From: an uncultured Thermoleophilia bacterium
GTDB taxonomy: Bacteria; Actinomycetota; Thermoleophilia; UBA2241
NCBI GenBank assembly: GCA_963707855.1
Contig: CAVPRQ010000020.1
Coordinates: forward strand, 41,940 to 105,939
DNA length: 64,000 bases
Reading direction: 5' to 3'
The translations under genes and the position numbers were made by a program. Shown here in pieces: positions 21,561-64,000 of the stretch. The notes under the pieces were generated by a model, which saw only the letters and a program-made list of their open reading frames with translations, was not told where the DNA came from and searched no databases. Positions within the stretch are counted from its first letter, which is position 1; every line of letters starts with the position of its first letter.

Positions 21561-21564
21561 CCCA

Positions 21565-42866: not shown

Positions 42867-42928
42867 TCGGCTGAAGCGGCGCGGCCTCGCATGTCGAGAT
42901 GATCGAGTGGCTCATCGCCCGTCGTGAC

Positions 42929-43268: not shown

Positions 43269-44431
43269 ATGCTGAAACGCTTCCTTCTGACCCCCGGACC
43301 GACGCCCGTGCCGCCGGAGGTGCTGTCGGCCCTCGGCGAGCCGGTCGTCCACCACCGCGCGCCGCGCTTCACCGAGATCCTCACCGAGGTGATCGCGGGC
43401 CTGAAGTACGTCTACCAGACCGAGAACGACGTGCTCGTCTTCGCCGCCAGCGGCACCGGCGCCATGGAGTCGGCGGTCGTCAACGTCGTGAACCCCGGCG
43501 ACCACGTGCTCGTGGCGAGCATGGGCAACTTCGGCGAGCGCTGGCTCAAGCTGCACGAAGAACTGGGGCGCCGAGGTGACCGCGCTCGAGTACGAGTGGG
43601 GCACGAAGGCCGACCCGGCCGACATCGAGAAGGCGCTCGCCGCCGACCCGGCGATCAAGGCCGTCTACGTGCAGTTCAGCGAGACCTCGACCGGTGTCGT
43701 CAACGACATCCAGGCGATCGGCGCGATCGTCGCCAGGACGCCGGCGATCCTCGTCGTCGACGCGATCAGCGGCCTCGGCGCGACCGACCTCAAGACCGAC
43801 GCCTGGCACGTCGACATCTGCGTCGCCGGCTCGCAGAAGGCGCTCATGGTGCCGCCCGGCCTCGCCTACGTCGCGGTCAGCGAGAAGGCGTGGAAGGTGG
43901 TCGAGGCCTGCACGACGCCGCGCTTCTACTTCGACTACCCGACCTACCGCAAGAAGATGACCGGCGACAGCGCCCAGACGCCGTACACGCCGGCGGTCTC
44001 GCTGATGGTGGCGCAGAACGCCGCCATCGAGCTGATCCGGCAGGAAGGCCTGGAGAACGTCTTCGAGCGGCATCGCTGGCTGGGCAAGGCCTGCAAGGCC
44101 GGCGTGCAGGCGCTCGGCATCGAGCTGTTCGGCCCGGACGACCCCGAGGCGAACAGCGTCACCGCCGTGCAAGGTGCCGGCCGGCGTCGACGGCGGCAAG
44201 ATCACCAAGGTCGCGCGCGACAAGTACGGCGTGTGGCTGGCCGGCGGGCAAGGCAAGCTCAAGGGCCAGATCTTCCGCTTCGGCCACTGCGGCTACTTCG
44301 GCGCCAGCGACATCCTCGTCGGGCTCGGCGTCCTCGAGATGGTGCTCGCCGAGCTGGGCTACGACGTCAAGTGGGGCGCCGGCACGGGGGCCGCGGCGCA
44401 GGTGCTCGCCCAGAGCCCCGTCCAGCTGTGA
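43269..44431 (+). CDS. class V PLP aminotransferase (serine-pyruvate/AGXT family; probable phosphoserine aminotransferase role next to serA), frameshifts near 43565 and 44170
   Basis: MLKRFLLTPGPTPVPPEVLSALGEPVVHHRAPRFTEI..FAASGTGAMESAV.. / ..VQFSETSTGVVNDI..VDAISGLGATDL..VAGSQKALMVPPGLA.. / ..GQGKLKGQIFRFGHCGY.. Confidence 0.82.
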
Positions 44432-44444
44432 GGGGGGTGACGTC

Positions 44445-46050: not shown

Positions 46051-46109
46051 GCCGAGAGGAGCGGACGCCCGACGGCGCGGGCCGCGGGCGCGACGTGACA
46101 GGCTGACGG

Positions 46110-46261: not shown

Positions 46262-47636
46262 ATGGCGCAGGCGATCGACGACCCCGGCCAGACCGACCTC
46301 GGGGAGGACTTCCTCGGCCACCTCTGGCCGCCGTTCACCCAGCTCCAGGGCCTGAGGCCCGTCATCATGGACCACGCCGAGGGCGCGCTCGTCTACGACA
46401 CCGAGGGCAACGAGTACATCGACGCCTTCGCCAGCCTGTGGACGGTCAACGTCGGCCACGGCCGCAGCGAGATCCACGACGCCATCAAGGCGCAGATGGA
46501 GAAGCTCGCGATCTACCACATCTTCGGGATCGCCAACGAGCCCACGATCAAGCTCGCCGCCAAGGTCGCCGCGCTGCTGCCGGGCGACCTCGACCACGTC
46601 TTCTTCACCCTCGGCGGCGGCGAGTCGGTCGAGACCGCCGTCAAGATGGCGCGCCAGTACCACCGCAACCGCGGCAACGGCACCAAGTACATGGTCCTCT
46701 TCCGCGACCGCGCCTACCACGGCACCACGATGACCTCGACGAGCGCCCAGGGGCTCCCCGTCAACCGGCAGAAGTTCGAGCCCCTGCTGCCCGGGTTCAT
46801 CAAGCTCGGCGCCCCGTACTGCTACCGCTGCGCCTGGCACAAGACCTACGGCGAGGACTGCCGCATGGAGTGTGCCCGCGTCGTCGAGGAGGAGATCGCC
46901 TTCTACGGCGCCGAGAACGTCGGCACCATGCTCGGCGAGACGATGATCGGCACCGGCGGCGTGATCCCGCCGCCGCCCGAGTACTGGCCGATGGTCTGCG
47001 AGACCTGCAAGGCCAGCGACGTCCTCGTCATCAACGACGAGGTGATCACCGGCTTCGGGCGCAGCGGCACCTGGTTCGGCTTTCAGCAGTTCGGCTCCGA
47101 CCCCGACCTCGTGACCCTGGCCAAGGGCCTCTCCTCGGGCTACCTGCCGCTCGGCGCCGTGGCCGCCCGCGAGCACGTCTTCGAGGCCTTCCTCGGCGAC
47201 GGCGAGCAAGGCGTTCATGAGCGGGGCCACCTACAACGGCCACCCGCTCTGCTCGGCCGCCGGCCTCGCCAACCTCGAGATCATCGAGCGCGAGAAGCTC
47301 GTCGAGCGCTGCGCCGAGGTCGGGCCCTACCTGCAGGAGGGCCTGCGCACCCTGCTCAGCCACCCGATCGTCGGCGACGTGCGCGGCGTCGGCCTGGTGG
47401 CCGGCATCGAGTACGTCTCCGACAAGGCGACGCGCGAGTGGTTCCCGCTCTCCGCGGGCGTCGCCGCGCGGATCCGCGACGAGGCCTTCCGGCGCGGCGT
47501 CTTCGTGCGCCTGCTCGGCGGCGGGCACGTCCACGCCGTCGCCCCGCCGTTCATCATCACCCGCGAGCAGATCGACACCATCGTGCGCGTGCTCGACGAG
47601 GCGATCGGCGTGGTCGAGAAGGAGCTCGGCTACTGA
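46262..47636 (+). CDS. class III (omega-type) PLP aminotransferase, frameshifted near 47210
   Basis: ATG follows GGAGGAA. ..DTEGNEYIDAFASLWTVNVGHGR..FFTLGGGESVETAVKMAR..RAYHGTT..LVINDEVITGFGRSGTWFGFQ..VTLAKGLSSGYLPLGAV.. then ORF 47217..47636: ..TYNGHPL..VGDVRGVGL.. Confidence 0.85.
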
Positions 47637-49470
47637 TGGGCGACCTGCTGCGCGTCGACCTTGACGACGGGGACGACCCGCGAGGAGAGCATCGCCGAGG
47701 AGCGCCTGCGCACGCTGCTCGGCGGCAAGGGCATCGGCGCGCGGATGCTCCTCGAGGAGGTCGGCCCCAAGGTCGACCCGCTGGGGCCGGAGAACAAGCT
47801 CATCTTCACGACCGGCCCCCTGAGCGGGACGCAGATGCCGGGCTCGAACCGCTACGGCGTCTTCTTCCTCAGCCCGCAGACCGGCGGCTACGGAGAGGCG
47901 TACGCCGGCGGCAACCTGGCGCCGCAGTTCGCCGGCACGGGCTACAAGGTGGTCGTCCTCGAGGGCCGCTCGCCGGCGCCGGTCTTCGTCGAGGTCGCCG
48001 AGGGGCGCGCCGCGCTGCACCCGGCCGCCGACCTCTGGGGCACCGACACCTACGCGGCCGAGGAGCAGCTCAAGGCGCGCGTCGGCGACCCCAAGGCGCA
48101 GGCCTGCGTGATCGGCCCCGCCGGCGAGAACCTGCTGCGCTTCGCCTGCATCGAGAACAACAAGTGGCGCAGCCTCGGACGCGGCGGCGCCGGCGCGGTG
48201 ATGGGCTCGAAGAACGTCAAGGGCGTCGTCTTTCACGGGGCGCGCAAGCCTGCGCTCGCGCGCCCCGACGCGTTGCGCGCGCTGATCCGCGAGATGGTCG
48301 CCGCCAGCGAGGACCATCCCACGGTGAACGCCTACAAGCGCATGGGCACCGTCCAGATGGTCCGCGTCACCAACGGCATGAACATGTTCCCGACGCGCTA
48401 CTGGACGCGGGGCCACCTCGACGACTTCGAGCCGCTCTCGGCCGAGACCATGCTCGCGACCTACCACGTGAAGAACACGACCTGCCCGCCCTGCTTCATC
48501 GCCTGCGGCAACCTCTGCCGGGTGCCGGACGACCACGCGACCCTCGCCGGCCTCGAGATCGAGGGGCCCGAGTTCGAGACGATCTACGCGTTCGGCGGCC
48601 TCTGCGAGATCGTCGACTTCGCCGAGGTCATGCGCCTCAACGACATCTGCGACCGCCTGGGCGTCGACACGATGACCGCCGGCAACCTCTGCGGGCTGGC
48701 CATCGAGGCCTCGCGCCGCGGGCTCATCGATCTCGAAGCTCGACTTCGGCGACGCCGACGGCGTCGCCGCCTTCCTTGAGATGATGGTGCGGCGCGAGGG
48801 TGTCGGCGACCTCTTCGCCGACGGCGTCCTGCGCGTCGAGGAGGAGATCCCCGAGCTCAAGGGGGTCGCCGTCCACGTCAAGGGCATGGAGCCGGCCGGC
48901 TACGACCCGCGCGTCTCCAAGGGCATGGCGCTCGGCTACATCACCTCGGCCCGCGGCGCCTGCCACCTGCGGGCCACGGTCATGAAGGCCGAGCTCAGCG
49001 GGATCATCCCGATCGACGCGGTCGAGGGCAAGGCGGCCATCTACGCCGACTGGGAGGACCGCTTCGCGATCCAGGACGCCCTCATCTACTGCCGCTTCTA
49101 CCGCGACTTCACGACCTGGCCCTTCCTCACGGCCGTCGTCAACGCCGCCGTGGGGACCGACTACGCCGAGGACGAGCTCAGGGCGCTCGGCGCGAGCATG
49201 ATCAGCGACTCGCACCTCTTCAACGAGCGGCGCGGCTTCGGGCTCGCGCAGGAGCGCCTGCCCGCCTGGGTCACGGAGCGGCCCATCGCCGACAAGGACG
49301 GCAAGGAGTCGCTGACCACGACGGCCGAGCTCGAGACCATGCTGCGCGAGTACTACGCCGTACGCGGCTGGGACGTACCCGGCCGGCTGAGCGGCGCGAA
49401 CGTGCGCGCCGGATCGCGGCGCAGTCGCCGCGACCGAGCACGGGGGATCGGGAGGAGGATGAGGGCATGA
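47636..49470 (+). CDS. aldehyde:ferredoxin oxidoreductase family enzyme, copy 2; frameshifts near 47660 and 48740
   Basis: ATG 47636 overlaps the aminotransferase stop (TGATG). MGDLLRVDL / TTGTTREESIAEERLRTLLGGKGIGARMLLEE..RYGVFFLSPQTGGYGEAYAGG..CPPCFIACGN..EGPEFETIYAFGGLC.. / ..GMEPAGYDPRVSKGMALGYITSARGACHLR.. Confidence 0.85.
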
Positions 49471-50823
49471 GCGGCACGGGTGGAGCGAGGGTCGAGCTCG
49501 CCGTGCCGTACGGCGACGGCGAGCTGCGCTTCTCGCTGCCCCGGGCCAACCTGGCCGGTGTGATCGAGGCCGGCGCCGGTACGGCTTGCACGCCGGTCGG
49601 CCCCGACGACGTCACCGGCCTGAAGCCGCCTCCGCCGCCGGCCCGACCCCGGCCGAGGAACAGGCCGAGATCCGGCGCGCCCTCGCGGAGCCGATCGGCG
49701 CGCCGCGCCTCTCCGAGCTCGCGGAGCGCGCCACCAGAGCCGTCATCGTCGTGAGCGACGTGACCCGGCCCTGCCCGTCGCACAAGTTCCTGCCCGCGCT
49801 GCTCGACGAGCTCCACGCGCTGCCCTCCGATGCCGTCTCGATCCTCTTCGCCCTGGGCAGCCACCGCGCCCACACGCCGGAAGAGCAGGCGCGTCTCGTC
49901 GGCGACGAGGTCGTCCGGAGGGGCGTACGGCTGCTCGATCCGGACCCGACGACTGCGTCCCGGCCGGAACCACGAGTCGGGGCACGCCTCTCTCCGTCTT
50001 CCGGCCTTATCTCGAGGCCGACCTGCGCGTCTGCACGGGCAATATCGACTACCACTACTTCGCGGGGTTCTCGGGCGGCGCCAAGGCGGTCGTCCCCGGC
50101 CTCTGCACCTACGACACGATCCGCGCCAATCACGGCATGATGCTGAGTCCGTCCGCGCGCGCCGGGATCCTCGACGGCAACCCGGTGCGCGAGGACATCG
50201 ACGAGGCCGGCGGCATCCTGGGTATCGACTTCATTCTCAACGTCGTGCTGGACGAGGAGAAGCGGATCGTCCACGCGGTCGCCGGCGACTGTCGTGCGGC
50301 GCACCGCGCCGGCGTCGCCCTGTACGACGCGCGCTGCGACCTGCGCGTCGACGCGGCGGCCGACGTCGTCGTCGCCTCCCCCGGGGGCGCGCCCAAGGAC
50401 ATCAACCTCTACCAGGCGCAGAAGACCCTCGACAACGTCGCCGGGGCCGTCCGTGACGGCGGCGTCATCATCCTCGTCGCCCGGTGCGGCGAAGGGCTCG
50501 GCAACGCGGTCTTCGAGCAGTGGATGGCGGAGATGGAGGAGCCGGACGACCTCGTGCAGCGGATCCGGCGCGAGTTCGTCCTCGGCGGGCACAAGGCGGC
50601 GGCGATCGCCGCGCTCCTGACGAGGGTCGACCTGTTCGTCGTGTCGGACCTGCCGCACGACATGGTGACGGGCATGCACATGACGCCGTTCGCCACCGTC
50701 GACGACGCCGTCGCGGCGGCGCTGGCGCGCTGCGGCGACGGCGCGCGTGTGCTGGTGGTGCCGCACGGGAACCGCGTGACGGCCCGGGACTGGACGCGTC
50801 ACACGAGATGGAGGCTGAGATGA
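49467..50823 (+). CDS. larA: LarA-like nickel-pincer-dependent racemase/epimerase (DUF2088), frameshifts near 49615 and 49950
   Basis: ATG 49467 follows GGGAGGAGG and overlaps the AOR stop (ATGA). ..VELAVPYGDGELRFSLP.. / ..IGAPRLSELAERATRAVIVVSDVTRPCPS..LFALGSHRAHT.. / ..TGNIDYHYFAGFSGGAKAVVPGL..NGMMLSP..GGAPKDINLYQAQK..HKAAAIA.. Confidence 0.8.
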
Positions 50824-51555: not shown

Positions 51556-53028
51556 TCACTCGCGCAAGCCGAGCTCCCGTTCCGCTTCGTCGATGATCGC
51601 TCTCAGCTTCTCGGGCACGCCTTCTGGCAGCGGCTCGGGCTGATGCGTCTCCAGGATCCGCCTGGCCTCTGCCACGGAGCGCTCGTAGATGCTGGTCGAC
51701 CCCGAGGCGGTCCAGTCCTCCCGGACCCTGCGGTCGATGAGCTTCGACTGCGACTGGCTACGCATGCCCTTGAACGTGTCGTCGTGCGAGAGGAAATCGC
51801 TGAAGGGCCCGATGTCGGCGATGACGTCGACCGAGAGGGTCTCGTCGTCGACGCGGATACCGGGGACGCAGTACTTGACCATGCGCGCGAACTCGGCGTC
51901 CATGACGAGCTGCGCGTAGTCGATGGTGACGCCCGACTCCAGCATCCCCAGCCCGTAGATCAGATTGGCTCCTGCCAACGCCGGTAGGAGGCTGGTGATC
52001 GTCTTCTCGTGGCCGGATTGGGCGTCTGCCACTTTGGAGTCGCCCTACGCCCCCGCGACCCAGCTGGGCAGGAGGTAGAACCGCGCCAGGCAGGCGACCC
52101 CGGCGCCGATCATGCCGCACTCGGGGCTGCCGACGGACGCGCTGGCGAAGCGCAGGTCCATGGCCGTCGTGGACGAGCCATAGATGACAGGCGTACCGCG
52201 GACCGTGAGTTGCGCGAGCGTGATCCCGGCGAGGACCTCGGCGTTGTGTGACACGAGCGTCCCCGCGAGATTGACCGGGGATGATCCTCCGGCCATCGCC
52301 ATCGACAGGACGTTGACGGGGATCCCGCCGCGGGCGCCCTCGATGATGATGCGGCAGCAGTCGGCGACGAGCTTGAGCGGGCTCACCGGGCAGGTCAGGA
52401 AGGAGAGGATCGGCCGCTGCCGCAGGCGTTCGTGGCCGCCGACGATCGCCGCCGCCATGTCGATCATCTTACGGGCGCAGAACCCTGACAGCGGGCCGAT
52501 GGTCGCGTGCTTCGTCGTGTTCGTGAAGATGGCCTCGGCGTTGTGCAGGGCCGCGGTGTCCTGAGGGACGTCATGGGCGCCGAGCGGGCGCTCGACGACG
52601 TCGATCTCGGGCAGCGCGTCGATGATCCGCGTGCAGTCGGCGACGTCCTGCTTGCGCGACTCGTGCAGCTCGCCCGTGTACGGGTCGACGACCTGGATGC
52701 CCTCGCCGAAGTTCGTGAAGCCGACACGGCCGTCCTCGAGCACCACGTCCTGCTCCGGAACACGTCCGCACATGACCACCTTGGGAGGCGCCGAGCGGAT
52801 CGCGTCCTCGACGACGTGCGGGGCGAGGCGTACCACCTTGCGTTCGCGGTCGACCCTGGCGCCCCCGCCCTCGAAGATCGCGAGGGCCTCGTCGTCCTCG
52901 ACGAAGACTCCCGTCTGTGACAGGACCTCGAGCGTCGCGAGGTGGATCTCCTGCAACTCGTCGGGGGTGAACACTTCGAGCCTGAAGCCGCCGCTCTTGC
53001 GCGCGCCCGCGCGGGGGTTGCGTCTCAT
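51556..53028 (-). CDS. mttB: trimethylamine:corrinoid methyltransferase MttB, pyrrolysine type (one in-frame UAG read-through)
   Basis: ORFs 52045..53028 and 51556..52032 share a frame and are separated only by TAG. ..[131 protein letters not shown].. No frameshifts. Confidence 0.9.
52045..52047 (-). other. in-frame UAG (predicted pyrrolysine codon) of mttB
   Basis: Minus strand reads ..GTC GCG GGG GCG TAG GGC GAC TCC AAA GTG.. The TAG aligns with Pyl in Methanosarcina MttB (..[20 protein letters not shown]..). Confidence 0.85.
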
Positions 53029-53666
53029 GTCGCGCCTCCGCCCAGCAGCGCGTCGATCTTCTTGACGCCGTCGTTGGCGTCCTCGGCGTAGGCGTCGGCG
53101 CCGATCTGGTCGGCCCAGCGCTGGGTGGCGGGAGCGCCGCCGACCACGGTCTTGAAGGAGAGGCCCTCCTCCTTGATCACCTTGATGACCTTCTTCTGCT
53201 CCTCCATCGTCGTCGTCAGGAGGGCGCTCATGCCGATGATGTCGGCGTTCCCCTCCTTGGCCTTGGCGATGAAGGTCTGGGCGGGGACGTCGCGGCCGAG
53301 GTCGGTGACCTCGTAGCCGTTGGCCTTGAGGTAGGCGATCACGATCGCCTTGCCGATGTCGTGCACGTCGCCCTGCACGGTGCCGATCACGACGCGTCCC
53401 TTGGTGGTCGCCGCGCCGGCCTCGAGGGCGGCGTTGGTGACCGCGGTCGCCCCCGCCATGGCGTCGGCGGCCATCATCAGCTCGGGGAGGAACATCTCGC
53501 CGCTCTCGAAGAGCTCGCCGACCTCCTGGATGCCGCGCACGAAGCCGTTCTGCATGATGTCGGCGGGGGTCATGCCCGCGGCCAAGGCACGCTTGGCGAT
53601 GTCTTCGGCGGCCGCACGGTCGGCGCCCACGATCGCCGCGCTGGCTTCCTGATAGATATCGGACAT
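53025..53666 (-). CDS. mttC: methyltransferase cognate corrinoid protein (MttC-like by adjacency)
   Basis: The ATG at 53666 is preceded by AGGAGG at good spacing. ..MFLPELMMAADAM..VIGTVQGDVHDIGKAIV.. (DxHxxG B12 motif) ..IIGMSALLTTTM..VVGGAP.. The stop overlaps the mttB start (ATGA). Confidence 0.85.
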   Translation of the reverse strand: MSDIYQEASAAIVGADRAAAEDIAKRALAAGMTPADIMQNGFVRGIQEVGELFESGEMFLPELMMAADAMAGATAVTNAALEAGAATTKGRVVIGTVQGDVHDIGKAIVIAYLKANGYEVTDLGRDVPAQTFIAKAKEGNADIIGMSALLTTTMEEQKKVIKVIKEEGLSFKTVVGGAPATQRWADQIGADAYAEDANDGVKKIDALLGGGAT

Positions 53667-53715
53667 GAGCATTGCCTCCTCGGGGCGGGATGTCGGATCG
53701 TCGTCCTGGGCCGTT

Positions 53716-54342
53716 CTACGCCACCAGCGCCTTGGCCTTGTCGACCGCGGCGGCGGCGTTGGCGCCGTAGCCGTCGGCGCCGATCTCGTCGGCGTAGGCC
53801 TGGGTCACCGGGGCGCCGCCGATCATCACGCGGACGGTCGCGCGCAGGCCGGCGTCCTTCAGGGCGGCGATCGTGGCCACCATCTTGGGCAGCGTCGTGG
53901 TGAGCAGGGCGCTCATGCCGATGATCTGGGCCTGGTGCTCGGCGACTGCGGCGACGAACTGGGCCGGGGTCACCCCGGTGCCGAGGTTGACGACCTCGAA
54001 GCCGGCGCCGGCGAGCATCATCCCGACGAGGTTCTTGCCGATGTCGTGCAGGTCGCCCTCGACGGTGCCGATGACCACCGTGCCGAGGCTCATCGAGTCG
54101 CCCGCGGCCATATGCGGCCGGAGGAGGTCGAGGGCGCCCTGCATGGTGCGCGCGCTGAGCAGCACCTCGGGGATGAAGCAGTCGCCGGAGCGCATGCGCT
54201 CGCCGACCACCTCCATGCCGGGCAGGAGCGCGCCCTCGAGGATCTCGCGCGCGCTGGCGCCGCTCGCGAGGAGCGCGGTGGTGAGGGCGTTCACGGTGCC
54301 CGCGTCGCCCTCGATCAAAGCCTGCTTGAGCTGGTCTTTCAC
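53716..54342 (-). CDS. mtbC: methyltransferase cognate corrinoid protein (MtbC-like by adjacency)
   Basis: GTG start follows GGGAG. ..CFIPEVLLSARTM..VIGTVEGDLHDIGKNLV..IIGMSALLTTTLP..MIGGAPVTQAYADEIGADGY.. Confidence 0.85.
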   Translation of the reverse strand: MKDQLKQALIEGDAGTVNALTTALLASGASAREILEGALLPGMEVVGERMRSGDCFIPEVLLSARTMQGALDLLRPHMAAGDSMSLGTVVIGTVEGDLHDIGKNLVGMMLAGAGFEVVNLGTGVTPAQFVAAVAEHQAQIIGMSALLTTTLPKMVATIAALKDAGLRATVRVMIGGAPVTQAYADEIGADGYGANAAAAVDKAKALVA

Positions 54343-54394
54343 GAATGGCTCCCTTGTGTGGCGGGGCGCCCGCAGTGGGCGTCGAGCTCCGCCG

Positions 54395-55790
54395 TCAGTT
54401 CAGTCCCGTCCGCTCCTTGAAACGCTCGACGCAGTTGATCGGCACGTCGAGCACCCGGGCGATGTTGAACTTGGCCTCGATGAGGTTCGCCTGCCACGGG
54501 TGACTGATGGCGTAGCTGTGGATGCGGCCGAAGCCGTGCTCGCTGCGGATGTCGGTCATCACCGCCACGTCGGAGAGGTCGAACGGCGTCACGCCGAGCT
54601 TGTCGGCGACGTACTGCTTGGCCTCCTTGAGGCGCATTCCGCGGGTCATCTGCATTCGGGCCACGAGATCTCCCCCGGCCCGGATACCGCCCATGCCCGC
54701 TGCCTGCGCGTGAGCGTTGTGCATCCCGTGAGGGTCGCCCGAGCCCACCTACAAGCCGTCCAGGCGCAGAAGGTCGACGCAGGCCTTGGCGCTCCGGCAG
54801 GAGGCGTCGCCCGGCGGGTGCACGAACATCGGCACCCCGCCGACGCCCATGCCGACGTTCATGTGCACGGGGATCTCGGCGACGTCCATGCAGGGCTTCA
54901 CGATGGCGATCGCGCGGGCCATGTTCCAGGCGCAGCTCTTGCCGGTGTTGACGTTGACGACCGGCCCGTACATCGTCGCCCCGGCCTTCTGCACCACCTT
55001 CATCTGCTCGAGAGGCCACATGCCGGCGAGCCGCTTGCCGTCGTACTCGAGCTGGCCGTGCATGCCGAGCACGAACTCGCCCGCCATGCCGAGCTGGACG
55101 CCCATGTCGGGGTACTTCTTGCGGATGATCTCGGTCGCCCGCAGGGTGGCCCAGAACTCGGGGTCGCCGGAGGCGCCGGTGGTGTCGAAGTCGATCGCGT
55201 CGGCGCCGGCCTCCCACATCGCGTCGGCCATGCGGACGGCGTCCGAGACGGCCATCTCGGCGGCCTCCTCGGCGGCCGCGCGCGCCTCGGGGATCTTGCC
55301 CTCGGGCAGGAGCGTCGACCAGTTCTCGCAGGGGCCGTCGTCCTTGGCGTAGAGGCCGAGGTTGGGCATGATGCCGTACTGCATCGGTGCGATCGTGCAG
55401 AGCAGGGCGTCGTGGAGGCGCTGCGCCTCGTAGGGCATGATCGTGCGGATGACCTTGAGCGAGTAGTCGCCGGGGCAGAGCTCGAGGAGGTCGGCGCCCA
55501 TCCACTGCTCGTAGGACTGCATGTCCTGGGTGCGCGTGGCGTGCGTCTTCATGCCGCTGCCGTCGCAGCTGAGGACGATCTCGTCGCCGAGGTCGACGCC
55601 GACGAAGCGCGCCGGGCTGGCGTAGATGTCGAGCGAGGTGCTCCTGCTCGTCGGCGGTGAGGGGCTCGACCTTGGCGCGCTTCACCGCCTGGGCGACGCC
55701 GTCCTCGATGTCGGCGCGGAGCTCGCTCCGCGTCATGCGGGCGATCGAGCCGTCGCCCATGCGCGTGGGTATGCGTGTCTCTCCTGTCAA
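54395..55790 (-). CDS. mtbB: dimethylamine:corrinoid methyltransferase MtbB, pyrrolysine type (one in-frame UAG) with one frameshift near 55628
   Basis: TTG 55790 follows GGAGGGAAGG. (M)TGETRIPTRMGDGSIARMTRSEL.. / ..MQYGIMPNLGLYAKDDGP..IDFDTTGASGD..GMAGEFVLGMHGQLEYDGKRLAGMWP..NVGMGVGGVPM..LRLDGL-TAG-VGSGDPHGM..AGGDLVARMQMTRGMRLKEAKQYVADKLGV.. This is colinear with Methanosarcina MtbB. Confidence 0.88.
54749..54751 (-). other. in-frame UAG (predicted pyrrolysine codon) of mtbB
   Basis: Minus strand reads ..GAC GGC TTG TAG GTG GGC TCG GGC GAC CCT.. The TAG aligns with ..VDGI-O-IGVGDPLGM.. of archaeal MtbB. Confidence 0.85.
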
Positions 55791-55822
55791 GCCTTCCCTC
55801 CGCGTCCGGTGCCGTCTCAGAT

Positions 55823-55850
55823 GGCACTAAGCCACCGGTCAATTGGTGCC
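55823..55850. promoter_or_regulatory. 28-bp imperfect palindrome upstream of mtbB (candidate operator)
   Basis: GGCACTAAGCCACC|GGTCAATTGGTGCC has 10 of 14 positions symmetric around ACCGGT. It lies 33 nt upstream of the mtbB start in a lower-GC spacer. Confidence 0.25.
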
Positions 55851-56479
55851 CTAGTGGACACCCGACGCTCAGTATTCCATGATTCCCCGCTGTACATGGC
55901 GATTCTGGGCAGCTCACGCACTCCACACGATCGTCCCACCCATCCAGAGCTCCCGTGGCCACGGGCACATTCCCACCACCCTGAACGTGCCGCTCCCGAT
56001 GGCTCTACCTCCGCTCGAGGGCCTACTGGCGCCGCCGAACAGCTCCGCCCGACAGTCGGTCGATTTGGCTCTGAACGTCGTCCGAAAGCAAGGGCTCCCG
56101 GTTCTCCAGAAGTGCCTGGGTGGTGTCGTGCAGCCGATCCGAGAGCGTTGGAGAGTCGTTCGCGAGCAGTGGTCGCGGAGTCACGTATCGGAGAACGGGG
56201 AGCGCCACCCGAGCGCCATTGACGAGCCGCTCAGTTGGCTCGACCTCCAGCCGGCTGTGACCGGGGAATCGGAGTCGGGCGTGCTATGATCGCGCAACAT
56301 CCTACCGCTGTCCCCTCCCCTCGCGTTGGTGCTCAGTCCGCGCCTGTCTGCCGCTCCGGCTGTTGGCCATTGAGGCCGTTCGCGGTGCGATGAGACACTG
56401 GAGGAACGTCATCAGATCCGGCCCTACTCCCGAAGGTCCGCACCTCGGGACCGCCGCCGGGTGGCTGATTGGAGAGTGA

Positions 56480-57990
56480 ATGTCAGAGCACAGCCCGACT
56501 CCTGACCTCCGCACCCTCACCCCACGGAGGGCCGAGCAGCCGCTCTCCGCCGGCCGGCTCGCCCGGCTGCGGCAGGCCACCCTCACGATCCTCGAAGAGG
56601 TCGGTGTCCACGTACCTTCTGCGAAGGCGCGCGAGATCTTCCACGGGCACGGGGGCGTCGTCGGCGACGACGGCGTCGTGAGACTGCCCGCTGACCTCGT
56701 TGAGCGCGCGATGGCGTCTGCACCGCGCTCGTTCGTGCTCGGTGGGCGAGAGCCCCGCCTCGACCTGCTGCTCGATGGAACACGCAGCTACGTCTGTACG
56801 ACAGGGGTCGGCGTGCACGTCGTCGACCCGGTCGACGGCCAGCTGCGGCCCTCGCGGGCCGAGGACGTCGCTCGCCTGGCGCGGGTGTGCGACGGGCTGC
56901 CGCTGGTCGCCTTCTACTGGCCACTGGTGAGCGCCCAGGACCACGGCCTTGCGGCGCCGCTGGCCGAGTGCCACGCCGGCCTGACGAACACCGTCAAGCA
57001 CGTCCGCGGCGGCACGACCGTGCGGCCGGCGCTCGCGCGCTACGTGGTCGAGATGGCGCAGGCCGTGGCCGGCGGAGCCGACGGCTGCCGCCGCCGGCCA
57101 CCCGTCTGCGCCAACATCTGCACGATCAGCCCGCTGGCGCACGACGAACACGGGCTCGACTGCGCCTTGACCTACGCGGCCGCAGGCATCCCCGTCAGCT
57201 TCATGGCGATGACCACGATGGGCTCGGTCGCGCCTGCCAGCGTCGTCGGCGCCCTGGTGCAGGGAGACGCCGAGGTGGTCAGCGGCATGGTGCTGCTGCA
57301 GCTCGCCTTCCCGGGGACGCCAGTCATGCACTCGGTGCTGATCTCGCTGATGGACCCGGCGACCGGCGGCTACATCAGCGAGCTGGCGCCGCCGGTCGAC
57401 TGGCTCGCGACGCAGGTCGCGCACGCGTGGGGCGTCCCCTGTCTTGGAGGCGGCGTCGTGATCGGCGACGAAGCCGGCACCGGATGGGTCTCCGGGCGGA
57501 GAGCCGGCGAGGGCGCCCTGCTCGCCCACCTCGCGGGCAGCGAGCTCTGCGGCTTCATCGGCCTGGCCGGCGGGGCCATGGTGCAGTACCCCGAGCTGCT
57601 CGTGCTCGGCTGCGAGGCGCTCGAACTGGCCGCGGAGACCATGGCGGCGATGGAGTTCGACGAGGCCGACCTCGCCCTCGACGTCATCCGCGAGGTCGGA
57701 CCGCGCGGTCACTACCTCAAGCAGCGCCACACGCGTGAGCACCTGCGCGCCCAATCGTGTGCCAGTGTGGGCGCGCCTGCGCGGGCCCACCCCCGACGGT
57801 GCGGCGCTCGCTGACCTCGCGACGCACGCCTCGCGCGGTCTGCACCCGGACGCCGCCCGCGCCGCCGCCCTCGAGGAGTACCAACGGCTTGAGCGCGACC
57901 ACCATCCGGCGCCACTGCCCGCCGACGTCAGGCGCGAGCTCGACGAGCTGCTTGCGCGCGGCCGACCGCGAGGCGGCCTATCTGACATGA
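56480..57990 (+). CDS. non-pyrrolysine MttB-superfamily methyltransferase (paralog A), frameshifts near 57745 and 57958
   Basis: ..LTILEEVGVHVPSAKAREIF..ECHAGLTNTVKHVRGG..RRRPPVCANICTISPLAHDEHGLDCAL..FMAMTTMGSVAPASVVGALVQGDAEVVSGMVL.. At the Pyl-aligned site it reads ..VPCLGGGVVIGDEAG.. (Val, no stop). Confidence 0.85.
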
Positions 57991-58151
57991 GCGTCCGGGC
58001 CGCAAGGCGCCCGTAGCAACACACTAGGCACGGGGCCCACCGGAGCATTCGCTTCGACCGTGTACTTCACACCCGGTTCTGTCCGGAGCCGCGTCTCTCA
58101 CTGGGCGCATGGCGACCTGACCTGCTCGAGGACTCTCAAAGAGGGGGGAAG

Positions 58152-59846
58152 ATGAAGCCTGCGGACATCGTTCTCACCAATGCGCGCGTATACACAGTCG
58201 ACCAGAGTCAACCCTGGGCGCAGGTAGTGGCCGTCGATGGTGAGAGCATCGTCTACGTGGGGACTCAGAAGGACCCCACGTGGGAGAGGTTCATCGGCCC
58301 GGGGACGAACGTGTCCGACATGCACGGACGGCTCGTCCTGCCGGGCATGATCGATAGCCACACCCATCCGCGCCTCGTCGCCATGAGTTCGTGGCGTGTG
58401 ACGTTGCCTTGGACCTACGACAAGACCGAACTGTTCGCCTGGCTGGGGCAATACGCCGCAGCCCACTCCAGGGATGAGGTGCCGTTCATCTGGGCCAACT
58501 ACTACCCGACCGCGATGTTTGGCGACGAGGGTCCGCACAAGGAGGACCTTGACGCCTACGTCTCCGACCGCCCGGTGCTGATCGTGGAGTTCACGGGCCA
58601 TTCCTGCCTCGTGAACTCCAAGATGCTCGAGCTCATGGACGTCGACAAGAACACGCCCGACCCCGAGCCGGGCGTGGCCGTCTTCGTGCGCGACGCCGAG
58701 GGCAACGCCACCGGGTGGGTGAAGGAAGGGGCTTGGCGCTACTTTGCAGGCCACATGTATGCGGCCCTCAACTGGGCGCCGGCGCAGGAGGTGGCCCCCG
58801 AGCTCCTCAACGGATTCCTTGAGTTCCTCTCCTCCAGGGGTGTGTGCGCTCTGTTCGACGCGGGGGGCAGCGATGGCTTCATGGGCAGTGAGGACACCTA
58901 CAAGGCGTTGGCCGAGCTGGACCGTCGAGGCGAGTTGCACATGTACTGCGAAGGCTCGAACCGGTTCCTTGGCGTGGACGATCTGCCCGCGAAGATCGCC
59001 GAACTGCGGAACTGGCAAACCAAGTACGGCAGCAGGCACATCAGCCTGCGCACCATGAAGTTCTTCCTCGACGGGATGACCGAGACGGGGACGGGCGCGG
59101 TACTCGAGCCGCATAGCAACGACCCTGGGGGCACCGACTATGGCCCCCTCTACATGAGCGAGGACGACCTCGTTGCCTGCATGCTCGCCCTCAACGAGGA
59201 GAACCTCGACCTGCACATCCATGTGACCGGTGACCGCGCCTTCCGCACTGCCTGCAACGCCGTCGAGAGGGCACAGCAGCAGCTGGGCGACGCCTGGAGG
59301 GTCCAGGTCACACTCGCGCACTGCATGCTAGTCGACCCCGCCGACATGCCACGGGTCGCCAAGCTGGGCATCATCGTCAACTGGTCTCCACACTGGTCGG
59401 GCGGCTACTTCGGCACGGAGTCGGCCGAGTGGCTGGGCCAGGATCGCTTCAACAGGATGTACCAGTTCAACCCGATCATCAGCACCGGCGGCATTGTCGC
59501 CCTCAGCAGCGATGTCGCCAGCCAGTATGAGGCGCCGCGTGCCGACCCCTTCCTCGGACTTCAGGTCGGCCACACGCGCATCGATCCTTGGTGGCCTATG
59601 GGCGTTCGCGAACCTGCGTCAGGCTGCCTGGCGCTGAGCGACCTGGTCAAGGGCTATACGCTCAACGGCGCCATCCAGCTGCGAAGGGCCGAGACGATGG
59701 GCTCGATCGAGGTCGGCAAGCTCGCGAACATGGTCATCCTCAACAAGGATCTCTTCAGCCTTGCGGGCGACCAGATCCCGTCTGCGCAGCCCGAGGCAGT
59801 ACTGTTCGAGGGCAGGCTCGTTCACGGCACGCTCTTGCTTTCGTGA
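58152..59846 (+). CDS. amidohydrolase-3 (YtcJ-like) family metal-dependent hydrolase
   Basis: ATG follows AGAGGGGGGAAG. ..ADIVLTNARVYTVD..GRLVLPGMIDSHTHP..FFLDGMTETGTGA..DLHIHVTGDRA..TLAHCMLV..VALSSDV..GSIEVGKLANMVILNKD.. Intact 564 aa, with visibly lower GC than the surroundings. Confidence 0.82.
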   Translation: MKPADIVLTNARVYTVDQSQPWAQVVAVDGESIVYVGTQKDPTWERFIGPGTNVSDMHGRLVLPGMIDSHTHPRLVAMSSWRVTLPWTYDKTELFAWLGQYAAAHSRDEVPFIWANYYPTAMFGDEGPHKEDLDAYVSDRPVLIVEFTGHSCLVNSKMLELMDVDKNTPDPEPGVAVFVRDAEGNATGWVKEGAWRYFAGHMYAALNWAPAQEVAPELLNGFLEFLSSRGVCALFDAGGSDGFMGSEDTYKALAELDRRGELHMYCEGSNRFLGVDDLPAKIAELRNWQTKYGSRHISLRTMKFFLDGMTETGTGAVLEPHSNDPGGTDYGPLYMSEDDLVACMLALNEENLDLHIHVTGDRAFRTACNAVERAQQQLGDAWRVQVTLAHCMLVDPADMPRVAKLGIIVNWSPHWSGGYFGTESAEWLGQDRFNRMYQFNPIISTGGIVALSSDVASQYEAPRADPFLGLQVGHTRIDPWWPMGVREPASGCLALSDLVKGYTLNGAIQLRRAETMGSIEVGKLANMVILNKDLFSLAGDQIPSAQPEAVLFEGRLVHGTLLLS

Positions 59847-60552
59847 CGTGCAGCAAGTGCTCAGTCACACGAGCCGGTTTGAGGTGTGTTCGCCAGGACG
59901 TGACACGAACCCCGAGGAGCCCCTTGGCGGTGGCCACGGCCTCGATCGCGTCCTCGGCGTAGCCGTCGGCGCCGATCTCGTCGGCCCAGGCGCGGGTCGT
60001 CGGGGCGCCGCCGATCATCACCTTGACCGAGTCCCGCAGGCCGGCGGCCTTGAGGGCCTCGATCGTCTTCTGCTGGTTGGGCATCGTCGTCGTCAGCAGG
60101 GCGGTGAGGAGGAGGAGGTCGGGGGAGAGCTCGCGGCACTTCGCGACGAAGGTCTCGACGGGGACGTCGCAGCCCACGTCGGTGACCGTGAAGCCGGCGG
60201 CGCTGAGCATGCTGCAGACGATCGTCTTGCCGATCTCGTGGATGTCGCCGGCGACGGTGCCGGCGACGGCGACCCCGAGCGAGCGGCTCGCCCCGCCGGA
60301 GGCGTCGAGGGCGGGCTCAAGGACGGCGACCGCGGCCTTCATCGCCTCGGCCCCCTGGACGAGCTCGGGGAGGAAGAACTCGCCGCGGGCGAAGAGGTCG
60401 CCGACCTCCTCGATGCCCTTGACGAAGCCGAGGTCGAGGATGTCGACCGCGGCAAGGCCGGCGTCGAGGCCCTGCTGGGCGAGCTCGGCCGCGAGCTCGG
60501 CCTCGCCGTCGAGCACGGTCTGCTTCATCTGGGCGTAGAGATCGTTGCTCAC
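59755..60552 (-). CDS. third corrinoid (B12-binding) protein; true 3' end probably near 59860-59900
   Basis: MSNDLYAQMKQTVLDG..FFLPELVQGAEAM..VAGTVAGDIHEIGKTIV..LLLLTALLTTTMP..MIGGAPTTRAWADEIGADGYAEDAIEAVATAKGLLG. After that the ORF runs on as non-family sequence and overlaps the amidohydrolase 3' end. Confidence 0.8.
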   Translation of the reverse strand: MSNDLYAQMKQTVLDGEAELAAELAQQGLDAGLAAVDILDLGFVKGIEEVGDLFARGEFFLPELVQGAEAMKAAVAVLEPALDASGGASRSLGVAVAGTVAGDIHEIGKTIVCSMLSAAGFTVTDVGCDVPVETFVAKCRELSPDLLLLTALLTTTMPNQQKTIEALKAAGLRDSVKVMIGGAPTTRAWADEIGADGYAEDAIEAVATAKGLLGVRVTSWRTHLKPARVTEHLLHVTKARACRERACPRTVLPRAAQTGSGRPQG

Positions 60553-60648
60553 GTCAGCCTCCTCCTGAAGAAGTCCTCTGCTGCTCTACGGACCGGGCAC
60601 CTGTCGTCGTGAGCTCCCTCCGACGATGAACACCGGGCGGTCACGGCG

Positions 60649-62169
60649 TCACTCCCGATCTGCCGACGCCAGCAGCTGTTCAAGCTCCTGGAGCACGTCT
60701 GCGGGCAGTGGTTCGGGGTGATGCTCCTGTTCGATGCGCCGGTAGTCAGCGAAAGCGGTCGCTCTCACGACGGATGAATCGAGGCCAGCGCTCGCTCTCG
60801 TCGCCAACCTGTCGATCGAATCGGCGTCGGAGAGGGACCCGTGAGCATCTGGAGACCTCGGCCTGAGCCACGCCGGGAGTCGCATCTCCCGCATGCGCTG
60901 CCGAGTGTGCCTGTGCTTCAGGAAGTGACCGCGCGGCCCCACCTCGCGGATCACGTCCAGAGCGAAGTCTGTCGCCTCGAACGTGAATGCGCCCAACTCG
61001 CCCACTGCCTCGAGCAGCACCTCATGCTGGAGCATCACCTGTTCGGGGAAGAGCACGGTGGCTGCGCCGGTGAGGCCGAGGTACCCACAGATCTCGCTTC
61101 CCGACAACATGGCTTCGGCAGCGCCAAGGCCGGCGCGTCGCCCGGCCAGCCAGCCGATCCCACCGTCGTCGCTGCTCAGGCTGCCGCCGGACAGACTGGG
61201 CACCCCCCAGGCGTGCGCCAGCTCGGCGGCCATCCAGTGGAGAGGCAGCGGCACCTCGCTCACGTAGCCACCGGAGTAGGGGTCCATAAGCGAGACCAGG
61301 ACGGAATGGAAGACGGGGCAGCCGGGCGCGGCAAGCTGCGCCAGCACCATGCCACTGACCACCTCGGCATCGCCTTGCACCAGCGCTCCGACCGCGGTGG
61401 CCGGTGCGACAGATCCCATCGTCGTCATCGCCATGAAGCTGAACGGGATGCCGGCTTCGGCGTAGATCAGGGCGCAGTCGAGGCCGTTCTCATCGTGCGC
61501 GAGAGGGCTGATGGTGCAGATATTGCCGCAGATGGGCGGGCGACGACGGCGAGACGCCTCGTCGCCGGCCACCACCGTCGCCATCTCGACGACGTAGCGC
61601 GCCAGCTCTGGCCGCATCGTGGTGGCGCCGCGCACGTGCTTGAGGGTGTTGGTCAACCCGGCGTGGCACTCGTGCAGCGGCGCCGTCGTCCCGTGATCCT
61701 GGGCGCTCACAGGAGGCCAGAGGAAGGCGATCAGTGGCAGCGCGTCGCAGACGCGGGCGAACGTGGCCACATCCGCCTTGCGTGACGCGCGCAGCTTGCG
61801 GGTCTCGGTGTCGACCACGTGGACGCCGACTCCCTCCGTCGCCACGTAGCTGTGACTGCCGTCAAGCGTCAGGTCGAATCGCTCCTCTCGACCGGCCAGA
61901 CAGAAGGTCCTCGGTGCCGTGGACATCGCACGCTCGACGACGTCTCGCGGGATGCGCACGACTTGGTCGTCTCCTACCTTGGCGCCGTTGTCGGCGAAGA
62001 TCGTCCGCGCATTGGCCGAGGGCACGTGGACCCCCACCTCTTCGAGAATGAGCATGCTGGCTTCTCGGAGCGACGTCAGCTGACCCTCGTCGAAGACCCC
62101 ATCCGTTCGTCGAGGCGTGAGCGGCAGGATGTCGGGAGTCGGGCTGTAGTCTGTCGGGCTCTTCGGCAC
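60649..62169 (-). CDS. non-pyrrolysine MttB-superfamily methyltransferase (paralog B), intact
   Basis: GTG 62169 follows AGGAGA. ..LILEEVGVHVPSANARTIF..ECHAGLTNTLKHVRGA..RRRPPICGNICTISPLAHDENGLDCAL..FMAMTTMGSVAPATAVGALVQGDAEVVSGMVL.. The Pyl-aligned site reads ..VPSLSGGSLSSDDGG.. (Leu). Confidence 0.88.
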   Translation of the reverse strand: MPKSPTDYSPTPDILPLTPRRTDGVFDEGQLTSLREASMLILEEVGVHVPSANARTIFADNGAKVGDDQVVRIPRDVVERAMSTAPRTFCLAGREERFDLTLDGSHSYVATEGVGVHVVDTETRKLRASRKADVATFARVCDALPLIAFLWPPVSAQDHGTTAPLHECHAGLTNTLKHVRGATTMRPELARYVVEMATVVAGDEASRRRRPPICGNICTISPLAHDENGLDCALIYAEAGIPFSFMAMTTMGSVAPATAVGALVQGDAEVVSGMVLAQLAAPGCPVFHSVLVSLMDPYSGGYVSEVPLPLHWMAAELAHAWGVPSLSGGSLSSDDGGIGWLAGRRAGLGAAEAMLSGSEICGYLGLTGAATVLFPEQVMLQHEVLLEAVGELGAFTFEATDFALDVIREVGPRGHFLKHRHTRQRMREMRLPAWLRPRSPDAHGSLSDADSIDRLATRASAGLDSSVVRATAFADYRRIEQEHHPEPLPADVLQELEQLLASADRE

Positions 62170-62330
62170 CTCAGTCTCCTGTCTCTGATTGGCTGGTATC
62201 GAGATCCCTCGTCGATGCATCGTCGTTCGCGGTCGACGTCAAGCCGCAAGTACTGCGAGGCCGGCTCGCGAAGCGCGAGTCTCCGGAGTTCGCGTCTGCC
62301 GTCGCGTCATCGCAGCGTCGATGGCGCAGG

Positions 62331-63709
62331 TCAGGCGCCGATCATCTTCGCGATCAGGTCGGCGCGCCGCGCCGGGCGCCCCTTGGCCTCCTCGACCCGG
62401 TCGGCGCTCGCCATCATGCGCAGGGCGAGGTTGACGCCGATCCAGCGCAGCGGCTCGGGCTCCCAGGCCTTCGAGCGGTGGTTCACCCAGGGCAGCCGCG
62501 GTCAGCGGCGTGTCCTCACCGCGGATCAGGTCGCACAGCGTGCGGCCGGCGAGGTTGGTCGTCGAGACCCCGTCGCCGACGTAGGCGCCGGCCCAGGCGT
62601 TCCCGGTCGCGCGCTCGAGGCCGACCGACGAGTACCAGTCGCGGCTCGCCGCGATCGCCCCGCCCCAGCGGTGGCTGACGCGGAAGGGGCCGATCTGCGG
62701 GAAGAGCTCGCGGGTCAGCTCGCGGAGGTGGTCCTGGACCCGGGGGTTGAGCGTGAACTCCTCGCTCAGCCTGGACTCGTAGTGATAGGGCGCCCCGCGG
62801 CCGCCGATGGCGATGCGGCCGTCGTCGGTGCGGCAGGCGTAGAAGATGAGGTGGCGCAGGTCGCCGAAGACCTCGTGGCCCTTCCAGCCGAGCGCCTCCC
62901 AGGTCTCTTCGGAGAGCGGCTCGGTGGCGATCATCAGCGAGTAGATCGGCACGAGGTCGCGCTCGTGGCCGGGGAGCTCGGGCGTGAACGCCTCGGTGGC
63001 GCGCACGACGACCTCGGCCCTCACGGTGCCGAAGGGCGTCTCGGCGGCGTGCGGGGCGATCGCGGTCACGGGGGTGCGCTCGTAGATCGGCACGCCGAGG
63101 CGCTCGACGACCGTCGGCGAGGCCGCGCGCCAGGCGCGCCGGGTCGACGGCGGCGCCGTGCGGGGTGTAGACGGCGCCCAGGCAGCCGGCGACCTTCACG
63201 CGCGCGCTCGCCTCGCGCGCCCCGAGGAGCACGTAGTCGTCCTCGCCGAAGCCCCAGGAGCGCTCGTACTCGACTTCTGGGCGGCGCGCAGCAGCTGCAC
63301 CGGGTTGGTCGCCAGGCTGAGCTGGCCGTCGAGGTGGAAGCGCGCCTCGATGCCCTCCTCGTCGACCACGCGGGCGATCTCGTAGACCGTGTCGAAGAGG
63401 GCGCGCTGCTGGTCGATCACGGCCTGGCGGCCGCTCCACCGGGCGGCGCGCGCGCGGGAGCCCGGGGAAGTAGGTGTGACACCAGCCCCCGTTGCGTCCC
63501 GAGCCGCCGTAGCCGGCGATCTCGCGCTCGAGGACGGCGACGCGCAGGTGCGGGTCGGCCTTCTTCAGGTAGTAGGCCGTCCAGAGGCCGGTGTAGCCGG
63601 CGCCGACGATCGCGACGTCGACGTCGGTCGGCCCCTCGAGCGCGGGGCGCGGGGCAAGCTCCCCGGGCAGAAGGTCGAGCCACATGCTGCGTGAGCGGTA
63701 GTCTTCCAT
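62331..63709 (-). CDS. FAD-dependent oxidoreductase (DAO/PuuB/sarcosine-oxidase-like family), at least four frameshifts
   Basis: ATG 63709 follows GGAGG. MEDYRSRSMWLD..DVDVAIVGAGYTGLWTAYYL..GYGGSGRNGGW.. / ..QRALFDTVYEIARVVDEEGIEARFHLDGQLSLA.. / ..VEYERSWGFGEDDYVLL.. / ..VPIYERTPVTAI..LVPIYSLMIATEPL..GGRGAPYHY..SHRWGGAIAASRDW.. / ..PWVNHRSKAWEPEPLRW..AKMIGA. Confidence 0.75.
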
Positions 63710-63781
63710 CCCCGAAACCCCTCCTTGTGTGAGGCCTCGCCCCGGCACTCGCACCCCTTGACAGGCCTTCCGACATGTGCT

Positions 63782-63818
63782 TGTTGTACGTATAACAGAG
63801 GCCTCCTGGCGTTGTCTA
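63782..63818 (-). promoter_or_regulatory. candidate promoter with overlapping 16-bp palindromic operator upstream of the FAD-oxidoreductase/MttB-B operon
   Basis: Minus strand has TAGACA, an 18-nt spacer and TATACG. The palindrome TGTTgTACGTAtAACA (63782-63797, one mismatched pair) overlaps the -10. It sits in an AT-richer patch about 75 nt upstream of the ATG. Confidence 0.35.
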
Positions 63819-64000
63819 GAGTGGTCTCTTGGAGTGGGGAGGTTGCTGAGAGTGGCGAAGGAGGGGACGGTCGGCGAGTCGCTTGCGGAGCGACTCGAAG
63901 CCGCCGTCATCGAATGCCAAGACGGCAGAGCGCTGTCGCGAGGGGACTCAGGAAGAGCCGGAGGCGCCGGAGCGACCAGGGGCGACAGCCGCAGTGACGA

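Follow-up and report, generated by a model that had tools for sequence, protein, structure and literature searches.

A corrinoid-methyltransferase module with two non-pyrrolysine MttB paralogs, a flavoprotein and an amidohydrolase: a candidate quaternary-amine demethylation system in an uncultured Thermoleophilia bacterium

What would a bacterium with pyrrolysine-dependent methylamine methyltransferases do with a second set of corrinoid methyltransferase genes, and on what kind of compound would these act? The question is raised by positions 56480–63709 of a 64,000-nucleotide stretch of DNA from an uncultured Thermoleophilia bacterium (GenBank assembly GCA_963707855.1, contig CAVPRQ010000020.1, positions 41,940 to 105,939), referred to below as the window. 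An initial annotation, made from the sequence alone, described the region as a second corrinoid-methyltransferase module centred on a pair of MttB paralogs that lack pyrrolysine (Pyl), here called A and B. This description was borne out: both proteins match PF06253, and alignment to Methanosarcina barkeri MttB (7XCL) places Val (A) and Leu (B) at the Pyl column, as had been proposed. A and B belong to a large uncharacterised clade of the MttB superfamily. On balance, the region probably encodes a corrinoid-dependent system that demethylates a quaternary amine, with subsequent flavin-dependent oxidation and hydrolysis of an amide or ureide. It consists of five genes:

56480..57990, plus strand: paralog A, a non-Pyl MttB-superfamily methyltransferase (PF06253; 502 amino acids once two extra bases are removed)
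58152..59846, plus strand: YtcJ-type metal-dependent amidohydrolase (Amidohydro_3, PF07969, E 2e-57; 564 amino acids, intact)
60552..59908, minus strand: corrinoid (B12-binding) protein, called C3 (PF02607 and PF02310; about 215 amino acids)
62169..60649, minus strand: paralog B, a non-Pyl MttB-superfamily methyltransferase (PF06253; 506 amino acids, intact)
63709..62331, minus strand: DAO-family amine oxidoreductase dependent on flavin adenine dinucleotide (FAD) (PF01266; about 458 amino acids; four single-base indels)

Pfam matches recovered all five genes where the initial annotation had placed them, including the way in which A and B bracket the Amidohydro_3 enzyme and the corrinoid protein. 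The scores on PF06253 (MTTB) are 192.5 bits for A (E 1e-56) and 204 bits for B (E 3e-60), against a cut-off of 25. The two paralogs are 64–66% identical (66% over 422 amino acids), and the four identical runs quoted for them earlier are all found in both translations. The start proposed for B, 62169, is a GTG codon with a ribosome-binding site (AGGAGA) ahead of it, and each of the five genes is preceded by a Shine-Dalgarno-like sequence. The G+C content of the window is about 70%. A scan of 55500–64000 for promoters and terminators gave no signals exceeding shuffle expectation, and an Rfam search found no riboswitch in the module.

Where in the superfamily do A and B belong? Both share 29% identity with M. 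barkeri MttB, with MtgB of Desulfitobacterium hafniense (structures 2QNE and 9YCE) and with the Pyl-type MttB of the window itself, and phmmer comparisons with 7XCL and 2QNE give E values of about 1e-39 over about 405 residues. They fall below the cut-off of the MttB equivalog model TIGR02369 (260.6 bits for A and 270.7 for B; cut-off 525) and have neither an in-frame TAG codon nor a PYLIS element, which Rfam confines to the first module of the window. In a neighbour-joining tree with Pyl-MttB and MtgB as references (sequences of MtpB, MtcB, MtyB and MthB were not among them), A with P0015–P0018 and B with P0001–P0013 form sister orthologous groups, and the branch carrying Pyl-MttB and MtgB lies far from them; tight clustering with MtgB was not seen. 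Homologs of B are found at 93%, 87% and roughly 70% identity, and then in a very large group at 52–60%. The closest relatives of A and B are metagenomic proteins, and the matches in the genome collection come from Thermoleophilia and Chloroflexota metagenome-assembled genomes (MAGs). The clade comprises at least 120 homologs at 52% identity or more. It amounts to essentially one cluster in a library clustered at 50% identity, which holds about 2280 superfamily clusters at E ≤1e-10: about one full-length representative is more than 50% identical (P0362, 58%), and the next reaches 43%. Literature searches found no description of the clade or of the gene combination, which the initial annotation had not recognised as a described pathway.

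The clade also differs from MtgB at the substrate-binding positions. In MtgB, the quaternary nitrogen is bound by Y97 and F356 and the carboxylate by R312 and H348; the R312L mutant is inactive, and the equivalent of R312, which binds the acidic group, is reported to be conserved in the Eubacterium limosum methyltransferases for carnitine (MtcB), proline betaine (MtpB), phosphocholine (MthB) and gamma-butyrobetaine (MtyB) (PMC13080624). With the MtgB numbering fixed from the 2QNE alignment, the corresponding columns in A, B and 120 clade homologs are:

MtgB Y97: V in A and B; T, V or C in the clade
MtgB R312: L in A and B; L in 117 of the 120
MtgB H348: G in A and B; G in 112 of the 120
MtgB F356: A in both A and B; S, A or T in the clade

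All four residues that bind glycine betaine in MtgB are replaced in both paralogs. At the R312 position, 4YYC from Sinorhizobium meliloti (of the proteobacterial MtgB type) keeps the Arg, and Pyl-MttB has Tyr or Trp. The clade has invariant residues of its own that are absent from MttB and MtgB, including W151, C168, H169, R180, D267, H288, Y302, W321, W340, E359 and C361, several of them within a few positions of known active-site columns. D267 and E359 lie beside such columns, and elsewhere Asn is found in place of the acidic residue. This pattern suggests a remodelled pocket with an aromatic cage (W151, Y302, W321 and W340) and negative charge (D267 and E359). In substrate recognition, the cage and the added acidic residues may replace the Arg/His carboxylate clamp. 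To our knowledge, the non-Pyl enzymes of the MttB superfamily all use quaternary amines with an acidic group.

The other three proteins match known protein families. C3 has a B12-binding_2 cap and a B12-binding domain, with a DxHxxG motif (DIHEIG) at residue 103. It scores just above the cut-off of TIGR02370, the model for cognate corrinoid proteins (217.5 bits; cut-off 215.3), and its best NCBIfam match is the MtgC model NF047995, whose cut-off it does not reach (220 bits; cut-off 310). The amidohydrolase matches PF07969 with 196 bits over profile positions 2–472 of 472 and has an HxH motif (HTH) at residue 70. All NCBIfam models fall far short of their cut-offs on it, and the sole relatives found in a PDB search are the uncharacterised hydrolases 3ICJ and 3IGH. 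The DAO protein carries an N-terminal GAGYTG (the GxGxxG of the FAD fold), and its stop codon is at 62333..62331. The DAO flavoproteins found here are of a PuuB/'Phn_aa_oxid'-like type without a folate domain. The intact ortholog at L020, one of about 100 related loci (L-numbers) whose neighbourhoods were surveyed, is nearest among NCBIfam models to TIGR03329 (221 bits; cut-off 633) and then to L-pipecolate oxidase (111 bits; cut-off 600), and a PDB search with a DAO paralog from L012 gave glycine oxidase as the best, remote match (35 bits).

How much of this arrangement is kept elsewhere? DAO, with which B had been proposed to be co-transcribed, lies upstream of B on the same strand, and the order DAO, B, corrinoid gene is kept in close relatives. 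At L020 and L021 (87% identity), a PotD-like binding protein and a BetI-like TetR regulator precede DAO, MttB and the start of a corrinoid gene; at L022 (94%), MttB is followed by a corrinoid gene. More distant B-type loci (L001, L011, L012, L013 and L024, at about 70%) have the arrangement DAO-DAO-MttB-MttB2-DAO3-EamA-MttB3, and L015 and L019 additionally carry Opp-type transporters and TetR regulators. The A-type loci L003, L004, L010 and L014 combine an M14 peptidase, a gamma-glutamyltranspeptidase, MttB and SBP_bac_5. In the nearest relatives of A, the two near-identical contigs L016 and L102, A is followed by Amidohydro_3 as in the window. Beyond this gene, L016 has a formamidase/aliphatic-amidase-like CN-hydrolase in place of C3, B and DAO, and its similarity to the window stops exactly at the junction between the amidohydrolase and C3. 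Since their conserved partners differ, A and B, which are separate orthologous groups, may act on related but distinct compounds or pathways.

In the wider clade (52–60% identity), a dehydrogenase of about 826 amino acids with DAO, FAO_M and GCV_T domains is found in the same locus as MttB at 25 loci, and it directly follows MttB wherever the open reading frames (ORFs) were read, often with a gap of 1–4 nucleotides. Such a gene, of 824–826 amino acids and 1–4 nucleotides after MttB, is seen at L067 (9395–13373) and at 11 similar loci from sediment metagenomes (L051, L066, L075, L084, L087, L089, L092, L094, L097, L098 and L101); its domain layout is that of dimethylglycine, sarcosine or 4-methylaminobutanoate oxidases, and the spacing suggests translational coupling. 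Other neighbours recur as well: Sacchrp_dh (25 loci), class-III aminotransferases (23), agmatine-deiminase-like PAD_porph proteins (16), AsnC regulators (14), OCD/mu-crystallin family proteins (11), CN-hydrolases (10) and AFOR (8). ORF sizes had suggested that a TRAP transporter precedes the clade genes in the sediment loci, but Pfam identified the genes in question as AsnC, an OCD/mu-crystallin family protein, a class-III aminotransferase and Sacchrp_dh. The constant partner of the clade is an amine-oxidising flavoprotein, and the variable partners are C-N hydrolases (of four families: Amidohydro_3, CN-hydrolase, PAD_porph and polysaccharide-deacetylase-like) and enzymes of diamine and basic-amino-acid catabolism.

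L063 (7093–21078) is a co-directional array of five MttB paralogs amid two agmatine-deiminase-like (PAD) genes, a putrescine-carbamoyltransferase-like gene and a CN-hydrolase, with a corrinoid protein and an Opp-type transporter before it and Sacchrp_dh and a class-III aminotransferase after it. At L057 (14444–16852), two clade MttB genes are directly followed by an 802-amino-acid fusion of an APH-type kinase to a class-III aminotransferase fold, which resembles kinase and phospho-lyase pairs acting on amino alcohols.

How might the module work? A and B would be enzymes of the MT1 type, each demethylating a quaternary ammonium compound once and loading the methyl group onto a corrinoid protein in the Co(I) state, and C3 is the obvious candidate partner of B. 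From there the methyl group would pass to tetrahydrofolate by way of an MT2 enzyme, which, like the reductive activase, would be encoded elsewhere. The tertiary or secondary amine produced in this way is most likely the substrate of the DAO protein, whose oxidation of it would demethylate it further or deaminate it. For the amidohydrolase, the most likely role is hydrolysis of an amide, ureido or guanidino bond in compounds of the same family, ahead of demethylation or after it; such hydrolytic steps would expose the carbon skeleton or complete its processing. An N-methylated amide or ureide had been suggested as substrate in the initial annotation, and this receives indirect support from the C-N hydrolases of four families that recur beside the clade. 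The leading candidate for the substrate class, which we hold with considerable doubt, would be a diamine or basic amino acid bearing a trimethylammonio group, new to the superfamily, such as N-epsilon-trimethyllysine or a methylated compound of the putrescine or agmatine type.

Could the substrate instead be glycine betaine? The initial annotation had considered the route from betaine to dimethylglycine to sarcosine, in which A or B would produce dimethylglycine and one or more DAO enzymes would serve as dimethylglycine and sarcosine oxidases. Flavoprotein amine dehydrogenases, which include the 826-amino-acid DAO and GCV_T protein with the layout of a dimethylglycine/sarcosine dehydrogenase, are indeed the most constant neighbours of the clade; the MtgC model is the best NCBIfam match of C3, the regulator ahead of DAO in L020 is BetI-like, and proteobacterial mtgB is often clustered with genes for the later steps of betaine demethylation (PMC12478193). 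However, A and B lack all four residues with which MtgB binds betaine, and loss of R312 alone (R312L) abolishes MtgB activity. Identity to MtgB is low, the match to 4YYC is weaker still than that to MtgB (80 versus 137 bits), C3 does not reach the cut-off of the MtgC model, and the folate-binding GCV_T domain is absent from the DAO of the window. Nor is a betaine-type (OpuA or BCCT) transporter found nearby: the transporters near the clade are of the polyamine (PotD-like) or peptide/opine (Opp/SBP_bac_5) type. Glycine betaine is disfavoured because the MtgB binding residues are replaced; it is probably not the substrate, and the betaine pathway as a whole appears unlikely.

A different grouping of the genes deserves more weight, as a real possibility that we nevertheless do not expect to hold. 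The module might be two independent units, a DAO-B-C3 operon and a convergent A-amidohydrolase pair acting on a different substrate, with their adjacency an accident of the lineage. The differing neighbours of A-type and B-type orthologs speak for this, the former being found with gamma-glutamyltranspeptidase, M14 peptidase and SBP_bac_5, and the latter beside DAO paralogs; in addition, the nearest relatives of A have Amidohydro_3 and a CN-hydrolase instead of C3, B and DAO, and the similarity to L016 ends at the very junction of the two proposed units. On the other hand, the same parts come together again in the distant locus L086 (about 54% identity), where DAO, MttB, Amidohydro_3, AsnC, a corrinoid protein and an SBP5/Opp-type transporter are found, and a clade MttB also occurs with Amidohydro_3 at L076 (together with DAO), L005, L007, L009, L051 and L098. 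Moreover, the only corrinoid genes near A are C3 and the two of the Pyl module. Division into two units would alter the grouping of the genes only and is compatible with the proposed mechanism. It is also possible to ask whether the module still functions at all, and this depends on how the broken reading frames of A and DAO are read.

As sequenced, the first frame of A ends at 57814 and, as tblastn with B shows, the last 75 residues lie in another frame, so the span 56480..57990 given to A in the initial annotation holds only after two extra bases have been deleted. These are at 57753 and 57956/57957, by comparison with L016 (96% nucleotide identity) and L102 (97.7%), and are the sole indels within the coding sequence. 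Both of these loci are short-read metagenome contigs with an intact 502-amino-acid ortholog of A; the corrected translation of A has 502 amino acids, ends at 57990 and shares 98% identity with P0016. In the DAO gene, four single-base indels break the frame relative to L020 (at 63463, 63280, 63113 and 62500), and the four frame switches are visible in a frame plot of G+C at third codon positions (GC3). None of these six frameshifts had been noted in the initial annotation. L020, at 81% nucleotide identity, has an intact 458-amino-acid DAO with which the window gene is collinear across three frames; B shows no frame-breaking indel against the same locus. The ORF of C3 runs on to 59755, about 50 codons beyond the stop of the 92%-identical L022 ortholog (216 amino acids). 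The read-through (59755–59907) extends into the 3′ end of the amidohydrolase gene, which is convergent with that of C3, and probably stems from a further sequence error or from loss of the stop codon.

Breaks of the same kind split or truncate at least ten unrelated genes of the window, housekeeping genes included: two AFOR, LarA, guaA, ilvD, ilvB/ilvN, an Fe-alcohol dehydrogenase (Fe-ADH), LtrA, serA and a class-III aminotransferase (examples at 47637–49470, 49463–50823, 7090–8238, 27894–28850, 29343–31049 and 42903–46106). One AFOR gene is broken at Pfam profile position 151/157, LarA is also split, and single frames hold just parts of guaA, ilvD, ilvB, Fe-ADH, LtrA, serA and the class-III aminotransferase. 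Because unrelated genes are split alike and an intact A is found in L016 and L102, the frameshifts in A and DAO are most likely assembly indels rather than signs of pseudogenes. With single-base indels this frequent in the assembly, any ORF-based reading of the window needs frame correction. The alternative would be a decaying module in which A and DAO are true pseudogenes and only B, C3 and the amidohydrolase still function, as the two frame-breaking indels in A, the four in DAO and the missing stop codon of C3 would indicate. This is very unlikely, since the same breaks are found in genes such as guaA, ilvD, ilvB, serA and the two AFOR, the broken frames keep a high GC3 coding signal, both genes are collinear over their full length with intact orthologs, and orthologs at 96–98% identity are intact.

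Several points weigh against the reading of the region as a demethylase, oxidase and hydrolase system for a quaternary amine. No MT2 (of the pterin-binding or URO-D type) and no RamA-type activase was found among the window ORFs scanned with Pfam, a non-exhaustive scan in which frameshifted stretches were covered in some frames only. The neighbours point to several different substrate families (lysine, polyamine/agmatine and 4-aminobutyrate), and the substrate guess is a weak one. An acidic group on the substrate could also be accommodated in spite of the loss of R312, by R180 or another conserved basic residue, and it is the published statement on R312, not the tree, that sets the clade apart from MtcB, MtpB, MtyB and MthB. 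The closer homologs of the amidohydrolase (62% identity) stand beside Opp transporters, S15 peptidases and DUF3237, at L018 with no MttB nearby, and the link between amidohydrolase and A is therefore lineage-specific; at L017, MttB fragments are found 2–4 kb downstream of the amidohydrolase homolog. Finally, if the frameshifts were real, A and DAO would be pseudogenes in this strain.

By analogy, the module may be thought of as working like the MtgB/MtgC, MtqC-linked and MthB/MthC systems. Like the MtgB/MtgC system of D. hafniense, it combines an MT1 gene with an adjoining gene for a dedicated small corrinoid protein; the MT1 proteins share superfamily and fold (about 410 residues aligned, E 6e-39) and have a hydrophobic residue at the Pyl column. 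In contrast, A and B have V, L, G and A in place of Y97, R312, H348 and F356, along with the Trp, Tyr and acidic residues of their own clade, and the MtgBCA system as described includes neither a flavoprotein nor an amidohydrolase partner. Pyl-MttB (paired with MttC, and in the window encoded at 53028..51556) likewise belongs to the superfamily and shares with the clade the absence of the carboxylate-binding Arg, but has Tyr or Trp, not Leu, in this column, and differs in its in-frame TAG and PYLIS.

In the phosphocholine system of Eubacterium limosum (MthB/MthC/MthA/MthK), the substrate is first modified by the enzyme of an adjoining gene (PMC12155760), and the amidohydrolase, and perhaps DAO, could be a substrate-modifying neighbour of this kind. 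The Mth partner is a kinase, however, and not a hydrolase or flavoprotein, and MthB is reported to keep the Arg where the clade has Leu. In the proteobacterial MtgBCD(E) clusters of Ruegeria pomeroyi and S. meliloti, an MttB-superfamily gene is found with flavoprotein genes for oxidative demethylation (PMC12478193), a co-location that the module shares. Unlike the clade, 4YYC, its most distant solved relative, keeps the Arg; the DAO of the window is without a folate domain, and the host looks anaerobic, given its AFOR genes, 4-hydroxybutyryl-CoA dehydratase-like genes and Pyl methylamine methyltransferases.

The first module of the window lies at 51556–55552 on the minus strand and contains mttB and mtbB, with in-frame TAG codons at 52045–52047 and 54749–54751 and two corrinoid genes between them. 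Rfam PYLIS_3 (75 bits) and PYLIS_2 (69 bits) elements start at the two TAG codons and span 51948–52047 and 54652–54751. The relatives of genes neighbouring this module are found in Thermoleophilia MAGs, and expression of Pyl-type mttB and mtbB has already been reported in Actinobacteriota MAGs (PMC10805028). A tRNA scan of the window gave no tRNA, and hence no pylT. Elsewhere in the window, 16775–25374 and 46361–49470 carry the kinds of genes usually found in anaerobic fermentation of 4-aminobutyrate or 4-hydroxybutyrate: two AFOR, Fe-alcohol dehydrogenase, an acetyl-CoA hydrolase/transferase-family gene, an HpaB-family (4-hydroxybutyryl-CoA dehydratase-like) gene, glutamate dehydrogenase and a class-III aminotransferase. 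Their products could process the carbon skeleton that remains of a butyrobetaine- or diamine-type compound once all its methyl groups have been removed. At about 34.9 kb, a MetH-type methyl acceptor was considered and ruled out: the gene is a stand-alone homocysteine S-methyltransferase fragment (34944–35513; Pfam S-methyl_trans positions 122–282) whose N-terminal part lies in a different frame and which is not followed by B12 or pterin domains.

What, then, does the module add? Uncharacterised MttB paralogs are common (E. limosum has 42; PMC12155760), and for this reason the finding is not very surprising in itself. The clade, however, occurs widely in metagenomes from sediment, soil and wetland, is without the acidic-group clamp and is consistently found with amine-oxidising flavoproteins and with diamine and basic-amino-acid genes, and its conserved signature and set of neighbourhoods provide a concrete, testable lead. 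Since the clade here stands beside genuine Pyl-type mttB and mtbB in a Thermoleophilia-like actinobacterium, the organism is a candidate broad-range consumer of methylated amines. Identification of the substrate would improve the annotation of thousands of genes called 'trimethylamine methyltransferase' and would reveal a new way for methyl groups and nitrogen to enter anaerobic one-carbon metabolism. If the proposed substrate class is correct, the clade, along with its flavoprotein and C-N hydrolase partners, would provide Thermoleophilia, Chloroflexota and sediment bacteria with an anaerobic route from these compounds to lysine, putrescine or 4-aminobutyrate catabolism.

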